A DNA stretch of 11,910 nucleotides. Source: a virus. Made by a program: the position numbers and the translations under genes. The stretch lies in the UHGV virus genome UHGV-0361702; one strand, given 5' to 3'. Below are positions 4,120 to 11,910 of the stretch, in pieces (position 1 is the stretch's first letter; every line of letters starts with the position of its first letter). Under the pieces are notes generated by a model. The model was not told the origin of the DNA. It saw nothing but the letters and a program-made list of their open reading frames with translations, and searched no databases.

Positions 4120-4770
4120 ATGAAAACTCAATTGATGGGAGAGCGCATTCGCGCTCGGAGAAAAGAACTCAAGATCAGGCAGGCCGCACTTGGAAAGATG
4201 GTCGGCGTGTCTAATGTTGCCATATCTCAGTGGGAACGCTCTGAGACAGAGCCAAATGGAGAGAATCTTCTCGCCCTGGCTAATGCGTTGAAGTGTTCCC
4301 CTGACTATCTGATGAAAGGAGAGGAAAGTCTTTCAAACATTGCCTATCACAGTAGGCATGATCCAAGAGGGTCATACCCTCTGATTAGCTGGGTGAGCGC
4401 AGGATGCTGGATGGAAGCTGTAGAACCATATCATAAGCGTGCAATAGATAACTGGTACGATACAACCGTAGACTGTTCAGAAGATTCGTTTTGGTTGGAC
4501 GTGAAGGGAGACTCAATGACGGCTCCGGCCGGTCTCAGTATCCCTGAAGGAATGATAATACTCGTCGATCCTGAAGTAGAGCCGCGTAACGGGAAACTGG
4601 TAGTTGCAAAGCTCGAAGGAGAAAACGAGGCAACTTTCAAGAAGTTAGTTATTGATGCAGGCAGGAAGTTTCTAAAACCACTTAACCCACAATATCCGAT
4701 GATCGAGATCAACGGAAACTGCAAAATCATCGGCGTAGTTGTCGATGCAAAACTAGCAAACCTTCCATAA
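4120..4770 (+). CDS. cI: prophage repressor, P22 C2-type (CI family; N-terminal HTH, C-terminal LexA-like S24 autopeptidase domain)
   Basis: 216-aa protein with HTH (QAALGKMVGVSNVAISQWE), Ala-Gly cleavage site (VSAGCW), catalytic Ser (GDSM) and Lys (VVAKLEG). Closely matches the P22 c2 repressor as remembered. Confidence 0.95.
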   Translation: MKTQLMGERIRARRKELKIRQAALGKMVGVSNVAISQWERSETEPNGENLLALANALKCSPDYLMKGEESLSNIAYHSRHDPRGSYPLISWVSAGCWMEAVEPYHKRAIDNWYDTTVDCSEDSFWLDVKGDSMTAPAGLSIPEGMIILVDPEVEPRNGKLVVAKLEGENEATFKKLVIDAGRKFLKPLNPQYPMIEINGNCKIIGVVVDAKLANLP

Positions 4771-4837: not shown

Positions 4838-4891
4838 ATTTAAGTTTTCTTCAAAAATACTCTTGACCATTAATTAAAGAGATCTTAAATT
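4838..4891 (+). promoter_or_regulatory. oL operators and pL promoter
   Basis: Operator-consensus 18-mers at 4873-4890 (ATTAAAGAGATCTTAAAT, same half-sites as the first oR site) and 4838-4855 (ATTTAAGTTTTCTTCAAA). -35 TTGACC at 4863-4868, 17-bp spacer, -10 TAAATT at 4886-4891. A third oL site was not confidently located. Confidence 0.6.
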
Positions 4892-4937
4892 TAAGCCATC
4901 AGCAGGACGCTGGAAGCCAAACGGAAAAGATTGGCAG

Positions 4938-4977
4938 GCTCTTTAACATTGATGGGATTGTCCCGCCGAAATGCGGG
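4938..4977 (+). promoter_or_regulatory. nutL (boxA GCTCTTTAACA + boxB hairpin CCCGCCGAAATGCGGG)
   Basis: boxA at 4938-4948; boxB 4962-4977 (stem CCCGC/GCGGG, loop CGAAAT) in the leader between pL and N; identical to the nutR elements. Confidence 0.65.
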
Positions 4978-5291
4978 AACCAAAGAGTAGTTGGCTTTGG
5001 GGTGACGTGAAGTGCAGCTGCACGACGGCAACCGGAAGATAAGCACCCGGCGCGTCACCGCCAAAGTCAATTCCATAGGCGTTATGCAGCCGCCACCATA
5101 TTCAAGAAAGCTGCACAAGAGGTAGGAGGATTTATGTGAATACTTACATTCAATTGAGAGATTAATTAAATAGAACTGATCGAGCAGAGTCCATAAAGGC
5201 TCATAAATGCTCTTCCATCCCCGTCTAATTGGCGGGGAAGGAAACCACTTTGTAATAAAAAAATTCCAAAGTTGTTTCATCGGAGGTCAAC

Positions 5292-5591
5292 ATGACAGTA
5301 GTCATTACATATCTGGCTGACGATAACGCCAGAAATCGCCGCAGAGCACGCAGACAGGCTCAACGTGAACAGGCAATGCAAGAACAGCGACTGGCGCGAA
5401 AGATTGCGCTAAAGCTCTCTGGTTGCGTCAGAGCAGACAAAGCAGCATCACTCGGAAGCCTTCGCTGCAAGAAGGCAGAAGAAGTCGAGAGTAAACAGAA
5501 TCGTATTTACTACCGCAAGCCACGCAGTGAAATGGGGGTGACTTGTGTTGGTCGCCAGAAAATGAAATTAGGAAGCAAACCACTTATTTGA
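5292..5591 (+). CDS. N: N-type transcription antitermination protein
   Basis: 99-aa protein with N-terminal arginine-rich motif (NARNRRRARRQAQREQ) and a C-terminus (RIYYRKPRSEMGVTCVGRQKMKLGSKPLI) closely resembling the lambda N C-terminus; SD GGAGG 5 nt upstream; first gene after pL and nutL. Confidence 0.8.
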   Translation: MTVVITYLADDNARNRRRARRQAQREQAMQEQRLARKIALKLSGCVRADKAASLGSLRCKKAEEVESKQNRIYYRKPRSEMGVTCVGRQKMKLGSKPLI

Positions 5592-6381: not shown

Positions 6382-6500
6382 GGCATAAACAACAGAATAA
6401 ACACTGCACTGTGTATTCATTCCAACGAGTGAATACACGGAGCAATGTCGCTCGTAACTAAACAGGAGCCGACTTGTTCTGATTGTTGGAAATCTTCTTT

Positions 6501-6528
6501 GCCCTCCAGTGTGAGGGCAATTTTTTTT
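6501..6528 (+). terminator. second intrinsic terminator, 13 nt upstream of the next gene
   Basis: GCCCTC-cagtgt-GAGGGC followed by AATTTTTTTT; the downstream gene must depend on N-antiterminated readthrough. Confidence 0.55.
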
Positions 6529-6540
6529 GATGGAGGATAT

Positions 6541-6891
6541 ATGAGTGAAGTAACAGATTTAGTTGTTATTGAAAAAGCAAATGCAATGACTGTATTTCAG
6601 TCTGCCGACCAGATTGAAGAAATTCTCCAAAAGGTTGAACGTGAAGTTATGTCATTTGTGCCTGATATCACAACGGCAAAGGGCAGAAAGGAGATCGCTT
6701 CTCTGGCGTATAAAGTTGCGCAGACGAAAACATATCTCGATGGTCTTGGCAAAGACCTTGTTGCTGAACTGAAGGAAATTCCAAAGCTAATTGATGCCAA
6801 CCGCAAGACAGTGCGCGATCGCCTTGATGAACTGAAAGCCAAGGCGCGCCAGCCTCTTACTGATTATGAGGAAGAATCAGGCGCGGATTAA
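6541..6891 (+). CDS. hypothetical protein (116 aa); possibly the N-terminal part of a frame-disrupted or recoded larger gene
   Basis: SD GGAGG at 6532-6536 then ATG 6541 (the upstream ATG at 6445 would read through the terminator hairpin and has a badly spaced SD). Ends ...KARQPLTDYEEESGAD, overlapping the next ORF by 26 nt in the +1 frame. Confidence 0.55.
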   Translation: MSEVTDLVVIEKANAMTVFQSADQIEEILQKVEREVMSFVPDITTAKGRKEIASLAYKVAQTKTYLDGLGKDLVAELKEIPKLIDANRKTVRDRLDELKAKARQPLTDYEEESGAD

Positions 6892-7510
6892 AGCCGAAGA
6901 AGAAGCTAAGGCAGCAGCTGAAGCTCTCGCAAAGCAAATTGAGTCTGACCATGAAATAGCGATTTTGATGGATCGCGAATTTGACCGCCAAAGAGAAGAG
7001 GCAAGACTCAAAGCGGAGCAGGAAAAGCGAGAGCATGAAGAACGATTAAAAAGAGAAGCTGAAGAGAAAGCCAGAGCAGAAGCCGAAGCAAAGGCAAAAG
7101 CCGAAATTGAAGCAGCAGCAAGGCGAGAAGCAGAAGCTAAGGCCGCAGCGGAACGTGCAGAGCGTGAACGCATTGAAGCCGAGCAACGAGCACAGCGCGA
7201 AGCAAAAGAGGCAGCAGAACGAGCTGAAAGAGAAAAGCAGGCAGCAATTGAAGCAGAACGCAGAAAAGCACAGGAGGAGGCTGAACGAATCCGTCGCGAG
7301 GCTGAAGCAAAAGAGCAAGCCAGAATAGCAGAAGAAAAAAGAATCAAGGACGAAGAAGAGCGTAGAGCAAAGGATAAAGCTCACCGGAAAGAAGTAAATA
7401 ACAAAATACTTGCTGACCTTATCAAGGTTGGCGCATCAGAAGATGTTGCTAAAAATATCATAACAGCCATCGTAAAAGGCGAAGTATTCGCAACAAAAAT
7501 AACCTACTAA
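6866..7510 (+). CDS. hypothetical highly charged E/R/K/A-rich helical protein (214 aa as annotated); likely the continuation of the preceding ORF
   Basis: No SD before ATG 6866, and its frame is open from 6836; about 130 residues of ER/K-rich low-complexity sequence (REAEEKARAEAEAKAKAEIEAAARREAEAK...) followed by a short C-terminal domain (ILADLIKVGASEDVAKNIITAIVKGEVFATKITY). Confidence 0.5.
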   Translation: MRKNQARIKAEEEAKAAAEALAKQIESDHEIAILMDREFDRQREEARLKAEQEKREHEERLKREAEEKARAEAEAKAKAEIEAAARREAEAKAAAERAERERIEAEQRAQREAKEAAERAEREKQAAIEAERRKAQEEAERIRREAEAKEQARIAEEKRIKDEEERRAKDKAHRKEVNNKILADLIKVGASEDVAKNIITAIVKGEVFATKITY

Positions 7511-7803: not shown

Positions 7804-7958
7804 GTTTTACAGATAACTGGTCAGACGAAGAATTCATTCGTCAGATTAAAGAATTAATCGGTAACGAAGGAGATATTCATGTCACTTGCAACCACAGTGA
7901 AGGAGAGCAAGTTACAGAGACGCATGTACACGCAGAAAGCTCTCTGGTATCGCCATAA
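7800..7958 (+). CDS. hypothetical small acidic protein (52 aa)
   Basis: ATGA overlap with kil stop; AGGA just upstream; MSFTDNWSDEEFIRQIKELIGNEGD... The position upstream of erf is where P22 has arf, but no sequence support. Confidence 0.4.
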   Translation: MSFTDNWSDEEFIRQIKELIGNEGDIHVTCNHSEGEQVTETHVHAESSLVSP

Positions 7959-8059
7959 TGGTGACCGCGAAGGAATGCGGGTATGCCTTAATTTGTCCCG
8001 AGTCGAAGTATTAAATCAGCGTTATTTCCTTGGGCCGTGTCCATTCTGAGAGCAATCAT

Positions 8060-8665
8060 ATGAGCAAAGAATTTTACGCAAGACTGGCAGCTATTCAGGA
8101 GAATCTGAACGCGCCAAAGAATCAGTACAACTCATTCGGCAAATATAAATACAGAAGCTGCGAAGATATTCTTGAAGGCGTTAAGCCGTTACTGAACGGT
8201 CTGTTTTTATCAATCAGCGATGAAGTTGTGTTGATTGGTGATCGGTATTACGTGAAAGCCACGGCAACTATTACCGATGGCGAAAACAGTCATACGGCAA
8301 CCGCTCTTGCACGAGAGGAAGAAAGCAAGAAAGGAATGGATTCTGCACAAGTTACGGGAGCTACAAGCTCTTATGCACGCAAGTATTGCCTCAATGGTTT
8401 GTTCGGCATTGATGATGCGAAAGATGCAGATACAGACGAGCATAAACATCAGCAGAACGCAGCAGCAAAGCAATCAAAACCATCACTTACACCTGAACAG
8501 GTTCTAAAAGCATTCACTGACGCAGCAATGCAGAAAAACACCGTAGAAGAGCTTAAACAGGCGTTCGCCAAAGCGTGGAAGATGCTCGAAGGGACGCCGG
8601 AGCAGCACAAAGCGCAGGACGTTTACAACATCAGACGAGACGAATTAGAAGGGGCAACTGCTTAA
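8060..8665 (+). CDS. erf: Erf-family single-strand annealing recombinase (P22 Erf-like)
   Basis: 201 aa starting MSKEFYARLAAIQENLNAPKNQYNSFGKYKYRSCEDILEGVKPLL..., which closely matches the P22 Erf N-terminal domain as remembered. The first ATG of the six-frame ORF (8030) is less likely than 8060. Confidence 0.85.
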   Translation: MSKEFYARLAAIQENLNAPKNQYNSFGKYKYRSCEDILEGVKPLLNGLFLSISDEVVLIGDRYYVKATATITDGENSHTATALAREEESKKGMDSAQVTGATSSYARKYCLNGLFGIDDAKDADTDEHKHQQNAAAKQSKPSLTPEQVLKAFTDAAMQKNTVEELKQAFAKAWKMLEGTPEQHKAQDVYNIRRDELEGATA

Positions 8666-9048
8666 TGGCACATTCGATTACAGTAAGACTAAACAAACCC
8701 GCAAGAGAGTTTCAGGGCGGGGAAAATATCGGATTCAACATCCGTGCTGGCGTTCAGTATTACGATCGCCAGACAAAAAAGAAAGAATGGACAAACTACA
8801 GCGCCGTTGTATTTGCCAAGCCGGGAGCGCAAGCGGATTACTATCGTAGCGTTCTGGTTGAAGGAGGCATTGTAGAAATTACCGGAGAAAACATCAGGGT
8901 TGATGTTTATCAGGGGCAAAATGGTCAATCAATCACTCTTGAATTACTGAATGCAAAGATTGGATTTGCAACTTCAGGAAACAGCCAACAGCAGCAAAGT
9001 AGCAATCATCAAAATAATCCTGAATACGACGATTCCATCCCATTCTGA
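8665..9048 (+). CDS. phage SSB-like single-stranded DNA-binding protein (short OB-fold with C-terminal acidic tail)
   Basis: 127 aa ending ...NNPEYDDSIPF, the hallmark SSB C-terminal tail (E. coli SSB ends DDDIPF); TAATG overlap with erf stop. Confidence 0.75.
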   Translation: MAHSITVRLNKPAREFQGGENIGFNIRAGVQYYDRQTKKKEWTNYSAVVFAKPGAQADYYRSVLVEGGIVEITGENIRVDVYQGQNGQSITLELLNAKIGFATSGNSQQQQSSNHQNNPEYDDSIPF

Positions 9049-9071
9049 TTTAGAAAAATAAGGATTTAATT

Positions 9072-9368
9072 ATGCCAGCGCCTTTGTATGGTGCGGATGA
9101 CCCGCGCCGCTGTTCCGGCAATTCCGTATCGGAGGTGCTGGATAAATTCAGAAAAAACTACGATCGAATAATGTCTCTACCGCAGGAAACGAAAGAGGAA
9201 AAGGAATTTCGCCACTGTATATGGCTTGCAGAGAAAGAAGAACGCGAGCGAATTTACCAGACATCAATCCGACCATTCCGCAAAGCCACATATACCCACT
9301 TCCCTGAATATATCGACCCGCGCCTGCGTAATTACCGCTCACGCTATGGCGCTATCAGTAATGACTGA
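9072..9368 (+). CDS. hypothetical protein (98 aa); by position a candidate Abc-like RecBCD modulator, unverified
   Basis: SD AAGGA then ATG 9072; MPAPLYGADDPRRCSGNSVSEVLDKFRKNY.... The functional guess rests only on location downstream of erf as in P22. Confidence 0.6.
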   Translation: MPAPLYGADDPRRCSGNSVSEVLDKFRKNYDRIMSLPQETKEEKEFRHCIWLAEKEERERIYQTSIRPFRKATYTHFPEYIDPRLRNYRSRYGAISND

Positions 9369-9462
9369 GGAATTTACCATGAGAGGACTTGCTTAAGAGA
9401 AAGAGTTTCGGTTCTGTTAATGACAACAAATATCTGAATGCGATGTGGCGGAGTGGGAAGAA

Positions 9463-9981
9463 ATGAAACAAATGTCACTAATTGAGATGGATGGTTTTCT
9501 GAAAGGTAAATGCATCCCAAGTGATTTAAAGGTTAACGAAACAAACGCTGAATACCTTGTCCGTAAGTTCGGTGAACTTGAATCAAAACTGGAAACGGCG
9601 TTGCGGGAGTGTAGTTCTGCTGGAATCACGATTGATAACCTTGAGGCTAAATGCGCGAAGATGGCTGCTGAAAATACCTCACTTAAGCAATCTGAGAAGG
9701 AATTTAATGACTTTTGTCGTGAGGAGTTTAGCGAATGGGAAGATGATGTTACTGAAACCCCAGCCACCGATGCTTTTCTGGCTGAAGTGCGGGCGCAGGG
9801 GGTGGATGCTGCTATAGAAGCTGCAAAAAATCTGGTGGCCCAAGAATATGAGTATAAGGATTTCAAAGCGGCGCAGAGTGATTGCTGTATGCACCCTGGT
9901 TCAGACCTGGTAGGGAAGGTTGAAATGACTGAGTGGTTAGTTGACTTTGCTGCCCAGCTTCGCAAAGGAGGCAACCAGTGA
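9463..9981 (+). CDS. hypothetical protein (172 aa), predicted coiled-coil
   Basis: ATG 9463 with GGAG 9 nt upstream (the six-frame ORF begins at GTG 9445); stop overlaps the next start (GTGA). Confidence 0.55.
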   Translation: MKQMSLIEMDGFLKGKCIPSDLKVNETNAEYLVRKFGELESKLETALRECSSAGITIDNLEAKCAKMAAENTSLKQSEKEFNDFCREEFSEWEDDVTETPATDAFLAEVRAQGVDAAIEAAKNLVAQEYEYKDFKAAQSDCCMHPGSDLVGKVEMTEWLVDFAAQLRKGGNQ

Positions 9982-10277
9982 CTGTATGTCTTATTGATAA
10001 ACGTCGACGTGGGCAACAAATACCATCTGTTGAAATGCCGAATCACACATGGTTTTGCGTACTTGATATCGATGGTATGGATACGTTGGTTGACACTCGT
10101 CATTACTGCGATACCGCAACAGCTACTCCGGCGAAAGCAAAGAAAATGGCTGCTCTGATAGAAAACTGGACTCCACCTGATGGTTGGTGCAATGGGAATG
10201 ATCGAGATTGGCACGAAAAAATGAAGGGCTATATCTGCGATTTTTTACGTAAATGCAACGGCTTCAGGGGGATGTGA
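9978..10277 (+). CDS. hypothetical Cys/Trp-rich protein (99 aa)
   Basis: GTG start 9978 preceded by GGAGG with 6-nt spacing; translationally coupled to the neighbouring genes. Confidence 0.5.
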   Translation: MTVCLIDKRRRGQQIPSVEMPNHTWFCVLDIDGMDTLVDTRHYCDTATATPAKAKKMAALIENWTPPDGWCNGNDRDWHEKMKGYICDFLRKCNGFRGM

Positions 10278-10278
10278 T

Positions 10279-10851
10279 ATGACCAAAATTAACTATCAGG
10301 CACTGCGTGAGGCGGCAGAACGTGCAATTCCGGCAATGGAACGCCTGTTAATGTTGCCAGTTGATGATGATTTGTTAAGTGAACAGGAACTTAAGGATTA
10401 CGGTGTGGATATTGATGCGCTCAACGCCTTCAAATTTCTGACCGGACCAGAAACCGTGCTGGCGCTGCTGGATGAACGGGAAAGAAACCAGCAATACATC
10501 AAACGCCGCGACCAGGAGAACGAGGAAATTGCGCTAACGGTAGGGAAGCTGCGCGTTGAGCTGGAAGCTGCAGAGAAGCGCATTGCAGAACTGGAAGCCG
10601 AACCTGTAAGCCAAACTTACAAGTTGAACGAGCTGTCGGGCAACTATCCGGTAACTCCGGATGGTTGGATAAGCTGTAGTGAGCGAATGCCCGCTCAAGA
10701 TGATTGGATTTTAATTTATTCAAAGCACGGCGAGTATATGGCAGGACAGGTACAAGGGGAATACGTGGAGTTGAGCGACGGCACTTTATCGTGGTTAGGG
10801 AACGCCTTGTACTGGATGCCTCTACCGGAACCGCCGCAGGAGGTTAATTGA
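10279..10851 (+). CDS. Ead/Ea22-like protein with C-terminal DUF551-type domain
   Basis: N-terminal region (PETVLALLDERE...LEAAEKRIAELEA) resembles Ead/Ea22-like prophage proteins and the C-terminus ends ...YWMPLPEPP, typical of DUF551, both from memory. SD AGGGGGA before ATG. Confidence 0.6.
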   Translation: MTKINYQALREAAERAIPAMERLLMLPVDDDLLSEQELKDYGVDIDALNAFKFLTGPETVLALLDERERNQQYIKRRDQENEEIALTVGKLRVELEAAEKRIAELEAEPVSQTYKLNELSGNYPVTPDGWISCSERMPAQDDWILIYSKHGEYMAGQVQGEYVELSDGTLSWLGNALYWMPLPEPPQEVN

Positions 10852-11135
10852 TGGTCTCCTTCGCGAAATATACGATTATTGACTGGATAGCATTCATTCA
10901 GGTTTTGCTCATCTGGTTTTATATGGCTTACAGGAGTGGACAGTGGATTGTCAGTGTAGCCTGTAGCAATGGATGGCGTTGGTGGAACCGAAAGAATAAA
11001 AAAGCGCTGGCCTTGGCTTCGTTTTACGAAGCATTCAATCTTAACAGTCTTCAGCCTGGTTCTGTCGTTGTAGTCACCACTCAAAGCGGCATGACGATAC
11101 AAATTCACAAGCCAAAGGAGGAAGGTCGTGGCTAA
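10851..11135 (+). CDS. hypothetical small membrane protein (94 aa, one N-terminal TM segment)
   Basis: SD AGGAGG 7 nt upstream of ATG 10851 (TGATG overlap with the upstream stop); hydrophobic segment IIDWIAFIQVLLIWFYMAY. Confidence 0.5.
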   Translation: MVSFAKYTIIDWIAFIQVLLIWFYMAYRSGQWIVSVACSNGWRWWNRKNKKALALASFYEAFNLNSLQPGSVVVVTTQSGMTIQIHKPKEEGRG

Positions 11136-11412
11136 CCTGCAACTTGCCGTTAAAGGTGAATACTTCGATGCCATGATTCGCGGAGAGAAAACGGAAGAGT
11201 ATCGCCTGTGTAATGACTACTGGAATAAGCGAATTATGTTCCGCGAGTATGACCGCCTGATTATCACAAAGGGATATCCGAAGCGCGACGATTCCAGCCG
11301 CAGAATTGACGTCCCGTATGACGGATATGAAATCAAGACAATCACACATCCGCACTTCGGCGATAAACCGGTAAAGGTGTTCGCTATAAAGGTGAATATC
11401 GACAATGAATGA
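11128..11412 (+). CDS. hypothetical protein, possibly ASCH/PUA-like fold (DUF3850-like)
   Basis: GTG start preceded by AAGGAGG with 6-nt spacing; N-terminal motif LAVKGEYFDAMIRGEKTEEYRL resembles ASCH-domain proteins. Family assignment is tentative. Confidence 0.5.
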   Translation: MANLQLAVKGEYFDAMIRGEKTEEYRLCNDYWNKRIMFREYDRLIITKGYPKRDDSSRRIDVPYDGYEIKTITHPHFGDKPVKVFAIKVNIDNE

Positions 11413-11484
11413 TAATCCTCGCACTCGCGGGGATTTCTTTTATCTGAACTCGCTACGGCGGGTTTTGTTTTATGGAGATGATAA

Positions 11485-11652
11485 ATGCACTTCCGAGTCA
11501 CAGGTGAATGGAATGGAGAGCCATTCAACAGAGTTATCGAAGCAGAGAACATCAACGACTGCTATGACCACTGGATGCTGTGGGCGCAGATAGCACATGC
11601 AGACGTAACTAATATTCGAATTGAAGAACTGAAAGAACACCAAGCCGCCTGA
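11485..11652 (+). CDS. hypothetical small protein (55 aa)
   Basis: Not in the supplied ORF track (below its size cut-off). ATG 11485 with GGAG 7 nt upstream; product MHFRVTGEWNGEPFNRVIEAENINDCYDHWMLWAQIAHADVTNIRIEELKEHQAA; stop codon lies within a terminator hairpin. Confidence 0.4.
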   Translation: MHFRVTGEWNGEPFNRVIEAENINDCYDHWMLWAQIAHADVTNIRIEELKEHQAA

Positions 11653-11667
11653 TGGCGGTTTTTTATT
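11643..11667 (+). terminator. intrinsic terminator
   Basis: CCGCC-tgat-GGCGG stem followed by TTTTTTATT. Confidence 0.6.
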
Positions 11668-11709
11668 GCCTGATTTGCAGGTTCGATTCCCTATTCGGAG
11701 ATAGCACTC

Positions 11710-11910
11710 ATGCAACACGAACTACAACCTGATTCACTGGTTGATTTGAAATTCATCATGGCCGATACTGGCTTCGGTAAAACCTTCATCTATGACCGGA
11801 TTAAGTCCGGCGACCTGCCAAAAGCCAAAGTTATCCACGGGCGAGCAAGATGGTTATATCGTGACCATTGTGAATTCAAAAATAAGCTCTTAAGCCGCGC
11901 CAATGGGTAA
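11710..11910 (+). CDS. xis: AlpA-family helix-turn-helix protein, likely excisionase (Xis)
   Basis: 66 aa with the AlpA-type signature (LVDLKFIMADTGFGKTFIYDRIKSGDLPKAKVIHGRARWLYRDHCEF); last gene of the leftward operon at the window edge, where an integrase gene would be expected just beyond. Confidence 0.6.
   Translation: MQHELQPDSLVDLKFIMADTGFGKTFIYDRIKSGDLPKAKVIHGRARWLYRDHCEFKNKLLSRANG

Follow-up and report, generated by a model that had tools for sequence, protein, structure and literature searches.

Phages of the lambda type keep a run of small accessory genes between their recombination genes and their excisionase gene, and the question raised by each such run is whether its members form one system or an assortment, and what they do for the phage. 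We addressed this question for a block of seven short genes (9072-11652) in the UHGV virus genome UHGV-0361702, of which a stretch of 11,910 nucleotides, here called the window, was analysed. A first-pass annotation had described the block as the usual lambdoid ea region, lying between the recombination module and xis, enriched for anti-defence functions and composed mostly of genes to which no function could be assigned. Our results indicate that the block is very probably the distal, non-essential accessory part of the pL operon of phage CUS-3, and that it consists of independent modules; the earlier description and its interpretation prove correct in the main. It is a previously sequenced and published phage region in which every gene belongs to a catalogued family, and in this sense it is already known. 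CUS-3 and phiv205-1, the two phages with which it is identical, are P22-like temperate phages of the genus Lederbergvirus.

The 2.9 kb around the block share 100% nucleotide identity with Escherichia phage phiv205-1 (MN340231) and Enterobacteria phage CUS-3 (CP000711). CUS-3 is a prophage of E. coli K1, and the RS218 prophage has the same block (UTI89/RS218/IHE3034, argW). A 100% identical prophage, adjoined by dsdC, was found in UTI89, NU14, IHE3034, PMV-1, APEC O18 (avian pathogenic E. coli) and about 100 further complete E. coli genomes. Of 5426 such genomes, 4186 contain parts of the block, as do 591 phage records. The seven open reading frames (ORFs) are all present on the + strand where they had first been placed, and the GenBank/RefSeq gene calls of CUS-3, phiv205-1 and UTI89 coincide with every one of them.

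The order of genes on the + strand (cI, an N-like gene, cIII/kil, a Gp33 homologue, erf, an SSB-like gene (single-stranded DNA-binding protein), the seven genes and a TorI-type excisionase; Table 1) is that of the leftward early operon of a lambdoid phage. Because the block shares its strand with cI, N, cIII and kil, it lies in the distal pL operon and is the positional equivalent of the lambda exo-xis or P22 ea region. The position first proposed for it, with Erf (PF04404) and the SSB-like protein upstream and the excisionase downstream, is thus the one we find, and so are the hallmarks of an ea region, namely co-orientation within the pL operon, no recognisable promoter of its own and variable gene content. 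A search for sigma-70-like promoters in 8500-11910 returned 0 sites where 5.1 were expected by chance. The nearest candidate start is a pL-like promoter at 4863-4891, about 4.2 kb upstream of the block and flanked by repeated operator-like sequences, and a boxA-like TGCTCTT followed by a hairpin with a 7-bp stem and a 5-nt loop (about 5207-5236) stands just upstream of the N-like gene. Several terminator-like hairpins are spread over the stretch from pL to the block and over the block itself, and comparable ones in HK620 are annotated as tL1-tL3. Taken together, the missing promoter, the pL-like promoter, the N-like gene, the boxA and the terminators point to N-dependent read-through from pL to torI. 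After infection or induction, transcription would start at the pL-like promoter, and N-mediated antitermination would carry the polymerase past the hairpins before and after orf55 and into torI. Since hkaH and the DUF7739, Ea22-DUF551, DUF4752 and ASCH-like genes overlap or abut and have strong Shine-Dalgarno motifs, they are probably translationally coupled. Two further observations concern this part of the operon: the hairpin at about 5218-5236 resembles nutL, as a candidate picked out by eye, and the roughly 400 nt between the pL-like promoter and the N-like gene contain a 129-aa antisense ORF (4891-5280, - strand).

The same evidence bears on the proposal that these genes are lysogenic-conversion "morons" or prophage defence genes, expressed from the repressed prophage for the benefit of the host through superinfection exclusion or abortive infection. 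There is precedent for this, as some genes of P22-like prophages (sieA/sieB, gtrABC) are described as expressed in lysogens, peroxide tolerance is influenced by YfdS, a DUF551 protein from the cryptic prophage CPS-53, and the DUF4752 protein looks membrane-anchored like many exclusion proteins. However, no promoter-like site was found in or directly upstream of the block, all of its genes point the same way within the pL operon, behind N, cIII and kil, no PADLOC defence model matches any of the seven proteins, and the first gene encodes an anti-host protein. We therefore consider expression for the benefit of the lysogen very improbable.

To what extent the seven genes travel together can be read from their relatives. 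We compared 80 IMG/VR loci chosen solely for an ASCH-like protein at least 96% identical to that of the block, and tested ten genes in each. The loci showed 42 patterns of gene content in an invariably collinear order, and each neighbouring gene was restricted to between a quarter and a half of them; this comparison of cassette content across relatives is one that had been suggested for the block. The count of aligned loci shifts stepwise where genes start (9072, 10279, about 10855, 11113-11129, 11419, 11483-11488 and 11673), with further steps at domain linkers within hkaH and the Ea22-like gene. This free combination of genes, together with breakpoints at the borders of genes and domains, indicates independent, exchangeable modules rather than one machine. 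If the block were instead a single co-operating system, toxin-antitoxin-like or a multi-subunit complex, the overlaps would reflect stoichiometry, and four consecutive junctions that overlap or abut are indeed typical of complexes. Such a system is hard to reconcile with 42 combinations in 80 loci that have the same ASCH-like gene, with recombination breakpoints at gene boundaries, and with the different subset of genes found in each of HK620, APC_JM3.2, HF4s, HK446, P22 and lambda, and we give it very little credence.

The individual genes are well supported. Profile searches with each protein, also proposed at the outset, gave a PHROG family for all seven (E = 1e-38 to 1e-66) and a Pfam family above threshold for four. 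When each ORF was compared with its most divergent full-length, ungapped alleles among 89 loci, the ratio of non-synonymous to synonymous polymorphism (pN/pS) ranged from 0.07 to 0.7, with the minimum in the ASCH-like gene (for which 28 alleles gave 0.06 in the + frame) and the highest values (0.4-0.7) in abc2, hkaH and orf55. All seven ORFs are under purifying selection. Shine-Dalgarno motifs lie 6-9 nt 5' of every start (in order AAGGA, GGAG, AAGGAGG, AGGGGGA, AGGAGG, AAGGAGG and GGAG), in line with the good ribosome-binding sites noted earlier. The overlapping stop and start codons that were said to join the genes are found at four of the six junctions, but abc2 and hkaH are 94 nt apart and the ASCH-like gene and orf55 72 nt apart. 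That the ORFs are decaying, non-functional prophage DNA held open by chance or recency has next to no chance of being right. In its favour, a DUF2737 gene has been destroyed inside the block, and the Prokaryotic Genome Annotation Pipeline (PGAP) marks the Ea22-like gene as partial and reports a frameshift in a TolA-like gene upstream. Against it, none of the seven ORFs reaches a pN/pS of 1, every Shine-Dalgarno motif and start codon is preserved, the Ea22-DUF551 ORF runs without a break through two Pfam domains that both exceed their cutoffs, and many isolated phages that form plaques carry these genes as well.

Table 1. Features of the block and of the surrounding operon, with the spacing of the seven genes
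Feature	Position in window	Strand	Evidence or measure
abc2, anti-RecBCD protein 2, 98 aa	9072..9368	+	Pfam PF11043, E=4e-62
DUF2737 gene relic (HK620 hkaI homologue)	9379..9466	+	alignment with HK620 and APC_JM3.2, translations
hkaH, EaE/Oad2 family, 172 aa, isoelectric point (pI) 4.5	9463..9981	+	phrog_614, E=9e-66
DUF7739 protein, 99 aa, Sf6 gene 22 homologue, GTG start	9978..10277	+	PF24881
Ead/Ea22-like N-terminus, coiled coil and DUF551 C-terminus, 190 aa	10279..10851	+	PF13935, PF04448
DUF4752 protein, 94 aa, pI 9.8	10851..11135	+	PF15944, E=3e-34; phrog_667
ASCH-like protein, 94 aa, GTG start, 8-nt overlap with DUF4752 gene	11128..11412	+	phrog_625, E=1e-51
Tandem terminator-like hairpins, each with a U-rich tract after it	11414..11465	+	-24.7 kcal/mol, z = -5.85
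orf55, 55 aa, lambda Orf55 (lambdap35) homologue	11485..11652	+	phrog_676, E=4e-40
Intrinsic terminator-like hairpin and U-run, overlaps orf55 stop	11642..11665	+	-13 kcal/mol, z = -3.4
TTGC-N5-TTGC box, position of cII-dependent integration promoter	11666..11678	+	direct reading
Junction abc2 > hkaH			+94 nt gap
Junction hkaH > DUF7739			-4 nt overlap
Junction DUF7739 > Ea22			+1 nt
Junction Ea22 > DUF4752			-1 nt
Junction DUF4752 > ASCH			-8 nt overlap
Junction ASCH > orf55			+72 nt gap
cI	4120-4770	+	operon gene order
N-like arginine-rich motif (ARM) protein	5292-5591	+	operon gene order
cIII and kil	between N-like gene and Gp33 homologue	+	operon gene order
Gp33 homologue, 52 aa	7800-7958	+	87% identical to HK446 gp33
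erf	8060-8665	+	ERF Pfam PF04404, E=4e-44
SSB-like gp31 homologue	8665-9048	+	98% identical to HK446 gp31; SSB PHROG match
torI-type excisionase (recombination directionality factor), outside block	11710-11910	+	100% identical to HK620 hkaC; PGAP: TorI

The first gene of the block encodes Abc2. Its product matches PF11043 with 206.8 bits (cutoff 25) over profile positions 1-97 of 97. It shares 93% identity with P22 Abc2 and 98% with HK620 hkaJ, and matches the corresponding chain of PDB entries 8B1T/8B1U (phmmer E = 1e-56). These entries are the solved complex of P22 Abc2 with RecBCD and PpiB, in which Pro68 engages PpiB (PMC9836394), and by direct reading this proline is retained here, within IRPFRK. 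Judged by its 93% identity to the characterised P22 protein, Abc2 would bind RecC and redirect RecBCD towards Erf-mediated recombination. The suggestion that RecBCD modulators sit next to erf is thus literally true, the first gene being one that the annotation had left unnamed.

The gap behind abc2 holds the relic of a DUF2737 gene, with a 5-codon stub (9379-9396) and an out-of-frame C-terminal remnant (9383-9466). A 77-nt deletion between short similar repeats inactivated the gene; the deletion junction was present in 14 of the fetched loci and an intact DUF2737 5' end in 41, and PGAP calls the relic a partial pseudogene. We also considered a non-coding RNA in this gap (9366-9465) and rejected it: the gap is a gene relic, its RNA structure is not unusual (z = +0.95), and an Rfam scan of the window found no non-coding RNA family.

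Most relevant to a possible anti-defence role is the second gene, hkaH. No Pfam family matched its product, which has a mosaic build of N-terminal, central and C-terminal parts and is 73% identical to HK620 hkaH and 64% identical to P22 EaE over a 58-aa central segment. Relatives occur in 276 records of phages of Escherichia, Salmonella, Shigella, Klebsiella and Pectobacterium, and several of these carry the label "EaE protein". The hkaH product is also 50% identical over its full length of 172 aa to HK446 gp27 (BLASTP E = 2e-54), with about 93% identity over residues 1-70, and the two share the ETPATDAFLAEVRAQ motif and the C-terminal QLRKGGNQ motif. HK446 gp27 is Oad2, a protein "related to P22 EaE" that binds and inhibits the P2 OLD abortive-infection tRNase, and HK75/HK446 Gp33, a putative new RecBCD manipulator, triggers P2 OLD (bioRxiv 10.64898/2026.07.10.737580). 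The genes for hkaH and Oad2 sit at the equivalent place, behind abc2 and DUF2737, in an order common to HK446, HK620 and CUS-3. From its family membership, hkaH may therefore inhibit an OLD-type abortive-infection nuclease that is triggered when Gp33, and possibly Abc2, disable RecBCD. Silas et al. regard the surroundings of abc2 as an accessory region, and a second study describes them as a hotspot of conflict between phage recombination and host immunity (bioRxiv 10.64898/2026.07.10.737580). These two studies, and an anti-OLD protein 50% identical to the hkaH product, lend published backing to the anti-defence enrichment claimed for this neighbourhood. When the accessory-gene set of Silas et al. 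was searched with the proteins of the block, Abc2 was the sole one with a relative.

Three of the coupled genes that follow match Pfam families above threshold. The DUF7739 protein matches PF24881 over its full length (77.6 bits, cutoff 27); a relationship to P22 EaF was considered and dropped, as there is no similarity. The next protein contains both of the parts first attributed to it, an Ead/Ea22-like region at residues 3-104 (PF13935, E = 1e-29, 104.3 bits, cutoff 27) and a DUF551 domain at residues 129-187 (PF04448, E = 6e-11, 43.5 bits, cutoff 22, profile positions 1-68 of 68). It is 53% identical to the N-terminus of lambda Ea22, 63% identical to the coiled coil of P22 EaD and 43% identical to the C-terminus of P22 EaA. 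In "Ea22 V2" of Shiga toxin (Stx) phages (PMC10834534), an Ead_Ea22 region that spans the N-terminus and coiled coil leads into a C-terminal DUF551 domain, and the protein shares this architecture, a likeness judged by domain layout. Tetrameric, pro-lysogenic activity is known only for lambda and Stx-phage Ea22 (PMC10834534 for Stx); as a member of this family, the Ea22-DUF551 protein would modulate the lysis-lysogeny decision as they do. Public records describe this gene differently. PGAP divides it into a pseudogene and a small ORF, a split that the intact ORF does not justify, and phiv205-1 (MN340231) labels it "XRE family transcriptional regulator", which conflicts with its Pfam domain content.

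The DUF4752 protein matches PF15944 over its full length (117.4 bits, cutoff 27), and its C-terminal half alone constitutes phrog_16281. An N-terminal hydrophobic helix (Kyte-Doolittle maximum 1.66, residues 7-25) is followed by the basic stretch RWWNRKNKK, so that the protein is probably membrane-anchored; its earlier designation as a small membrane protein is accordingly plausible. Homology to lambda Ea8.5 was rejected for lack of similarity. With less assurance, the DUF4752 protein might act at the inner membrane, and the DUF7739 protein and Orf55 might be small protein-binding modulators. Sequence and profile searches of the PDB gave no significant match for the ASCH-like, DUF4752, DUF7739, hkaH and Ea22-DUF551 proteins.

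For the ASCH-like protein the evidence is divided. PGAP labels it "ASCH domain-containing", and its family comprises 1263 representative clusters at E <= 1e-3. The octapeptide GxKxxExR, defined for ASCH domains in the alpha1-beta2 region (PMC6803910), corresponds to G19, K21, E24 and R26; across 78 diverse relatives K21 is invariant and G19, E24 and R26 are kept in at least 90%. Like the GKER subgroup of ASCH proteins (EOLA1, TthASCH, ZmASCH), the protein of the block is a single domain of about 100 aa with this motif, which it has at residues 19-26, in the same numbering as EOLA1. YqfB-type ASCH proteins have GKTR rather than GKER, and an hhalign comparison of the family with E. coli YqfB was non-significant, aligning only the octapeptide, to GRKTITIR. 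Just 8 of the 78 relatives match the ASCH profile at E <= 0.01, and PDB profile searches, which bear on a PUA-like beta-barrel fold, returned only 3IUW (E = 0.56). Unlike members of the ASCH superfamily, then, the protein falls below the Pfam gathering score and is without a significant PDB match. The cautious wording "possible ASCH/PUA-like" is borne out as regards the conserved motif but not as regards the Pfam score, which is under the cutoff. GKER-type ASCH proteins have recently been reported as tRNA N4-acetylcytidine (ac4C) deacetylases, and the ASCH-like protein might conceivably bind or deacylate modified cytidine or RNA.

The annotation had held that most of the genes have no assignable function, and we agree, as the function of Abc2 alone is established among the seven. 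That Abc2 is the only one with an experimentally established function is also the first of several points that weigh against our account of the block. Part of the operon has decayed, as seen in the DUF2737 relic within the block and the frameshifted TolA-like gene upstream. N-dependent read-through and translational coupling were both deduced from the DNA sequence, with nutL identified by eye. The ASCH-like protein scores 14.3 bits against a Pfam threshold of 21.2 (PF04266), over the N-terminal 23 residues only, and an AlphaFold2 model built from a 40-sequence alignment left its fold unmodelled, with a predicted local distance difference test score (pLDDT) of 47, for which reason we did not use the model in a fold search. 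The central and C-terminal segments of the hkaH product are unrelated in sequence to those of Oad2. Finally, a 54% identical relative of Oad2 from HK75 shows no inhibition of P2 OLD (bioRxiv 10.64898/2026.07.10.737580), so OLD inhibition cannot be transferred to the 50% identical hkaH of CUS-3.

A bolder interpretation would make hkaH an Oad2-type inhibitor that keeps residues 1-70 as a common scaffold and is redirected by its divergent C-terminal half, away from P2 OLD, to a different OLD-family or related ABC-ATPase/TOPRIM defence, and would make the coupled genes further single-gene counter-defences. The DUF7739, Ea22-DUF551, DUF4752 and ASCH-like proteins would then guard a phage whose Gp33 and Abc2 set off guard-type immunity, the ASCH-like protein perhaps as a phage tRNA N4-acetylcytidine eraser or modified-base binder. 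We think this unlikely, because the only tested homologue of similar divergence, that of HK75, is inactive against P2 OLD.

The last gene of the block is close to one of lambda. The orf55 product is identical to lambda Orf55 in 54 of 55 residues (98%), and the latter has been modelled as a T7 Gp2-like binder of RNA polymerase, which its authors call speculative (PMC8614690). Two hairpins fill the 72-nt gap before orf55 (11414-11465), and the block ends, as described, in a terminator, with a hairpin at 11642-11661 followed by a U-run (-13 kcal/mol). Hairpins, orf55 and terminator form a near-identical cassette in CUS-3 (11414-11678) and lambda (29.08-29.37 kb), and this cassette is alike in the two phages despite their unrelated neighbouring excisionases. 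The end terminator is identical, and in the same position, in lambda and HK620. HK620 hkaD (EaG-like) shares only the last 50 nt or so of orf55, the terminator and the box behind it, which places a mosaic joint inside the coding sequence. The TTGC box aligns with an HK620 site annotated "cII protein / phage integration promoter"; its spacer is 5 nt in CUS-3 and HK620 and 6 nt at the aligned position in lambda, where we take the TTGC-N6-TTGC box to be the cII site of pI.

Four antisense ORFs within the block (9417-10214, 10716-11174, 11074-11424 and 11217-11555) were considered as genes and rejected, as they have no family matches apart from one PHROG. The exception, 11074-11424 on the - strand, is annotated in CUS-3 as ECRS218_0062 and has a family of its own, phrog_20945. 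Its pN/pS is 3.8, versus 0.06 for the sense ASCH-like gene (28 alleles), which marks ECRS218_0062 as an annotation artefact; the members of phrog_20945 are probably propagated mis-annotations.

Several side observations were made upstream and downstream of the block. The PHROG label for the family of the 52-aa Gp33 homologue, just upstream of erf, is "recombinase", and an ORF at 7879-8049 that overlaps it has its own PHROG family. Further upstream, the overlapping + strand ORFs 6445-6891 and 6866-7510 are treated by PGAP as one frameshifted "TolA-like" gene; the second is extremely rich in Glu, Ala, Lys and Arg. An HF4s gene that ends at the position corresponding to 6445-7510, matched by position only, is annotated like phi80 Agt ("Gam antitoxin"). 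At the other end, CUS-3 has been named as a carrier of the KplE1/HK620/Sf6-type recombination module (PMC2951348), and in modules of this type attP is placed between xis and int. The GenBank record of CUS-3 stops at an "attR core", window positions 11675-11690, upstream of torI, and thus apparently omits the phage's own excisionase gene. The argW-derived core TCTGCAGGGGACACCA stands after torI, downstream of the window, as annotated in phiv205-1, and this is the arrangement expected for KplE1/HK620-type modules. We would guess that the attR core was misplaced where homology to the K-12 KplE1 remnant starts.

As a discovery the block carries little weight: the phage is published, and a classic lambdoid ea/exo-xis accessory region will not surprise a phage specialist. 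Its practical worth lies in a short, well-defined list of candidate anti-defence genes, at a time when the RecBCD-manipulating genes beside it are known to set off guards of the OLD and retron types. Extraintestinal pathogenic E. coli (K1, UTI89, APEC) commonly carry prophages of the CUS-3 type. Because parts of the block recur so widely among complete E. coli genomes, functions for hkaH and for the DUF7739, DUF4752 and ASCH-like genes would annotate thousands of genomes, and could add anti-defence proteins to the known set.

Compared with known systems, the block is a P22-type version of the lambda exo-xis/ea region, with shuffled host-manipulation genes of a well-known kind. The genes of CUS-3, phiv205-1 and UTI89-type prophages (hkaJ, hkaH, ECRS218_0058-0063) do not differ in sequence from those of the block, but their public annotations are less informative ("hypothetical protein", one XRE mislabel, a spurious antisense ORF). 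Added here are the name Abc2, the Oad2/EaE link, the Ea22 V2 and lambda-Orf55 identities, the DUF2737 relic, the internal hairpins and a quantified mosaicism. The lambda exo-xis region contains orf60a, orf63, orf61, orf73, ea22, ea8.5 and orf55, and the P22 ea region abc2, orf56, eaE, orf45, eaF, eaD, eaI, eaA, eaG and eaC; common to all three is their place in the pL operon, with the recombination genes on one side and xis on the other. The ea-type genes of lambda and P22 are small, mosaic and, according to the literature, non-essential in the laboratory. The genes orf60a, orf63, orf61, ea8.5 and abc1 were not found in the window, and tblastn detected no counterpart of the DUF7739, DUF4752 and ASCH-like genes in those parts of lambda and P22 that were compared. 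Unlike in lambda and P22, the neighbouring excisionase is of the TorI type and attP lies between xis and int. With P22 the block shares Abc2 (93%), the EaE segment, the EaD coiled coil and the EaA-type DUF551 C-terminus, and with lambda it shares part of Ea22 and Orf55 (98%) together with its flanking hairpins.

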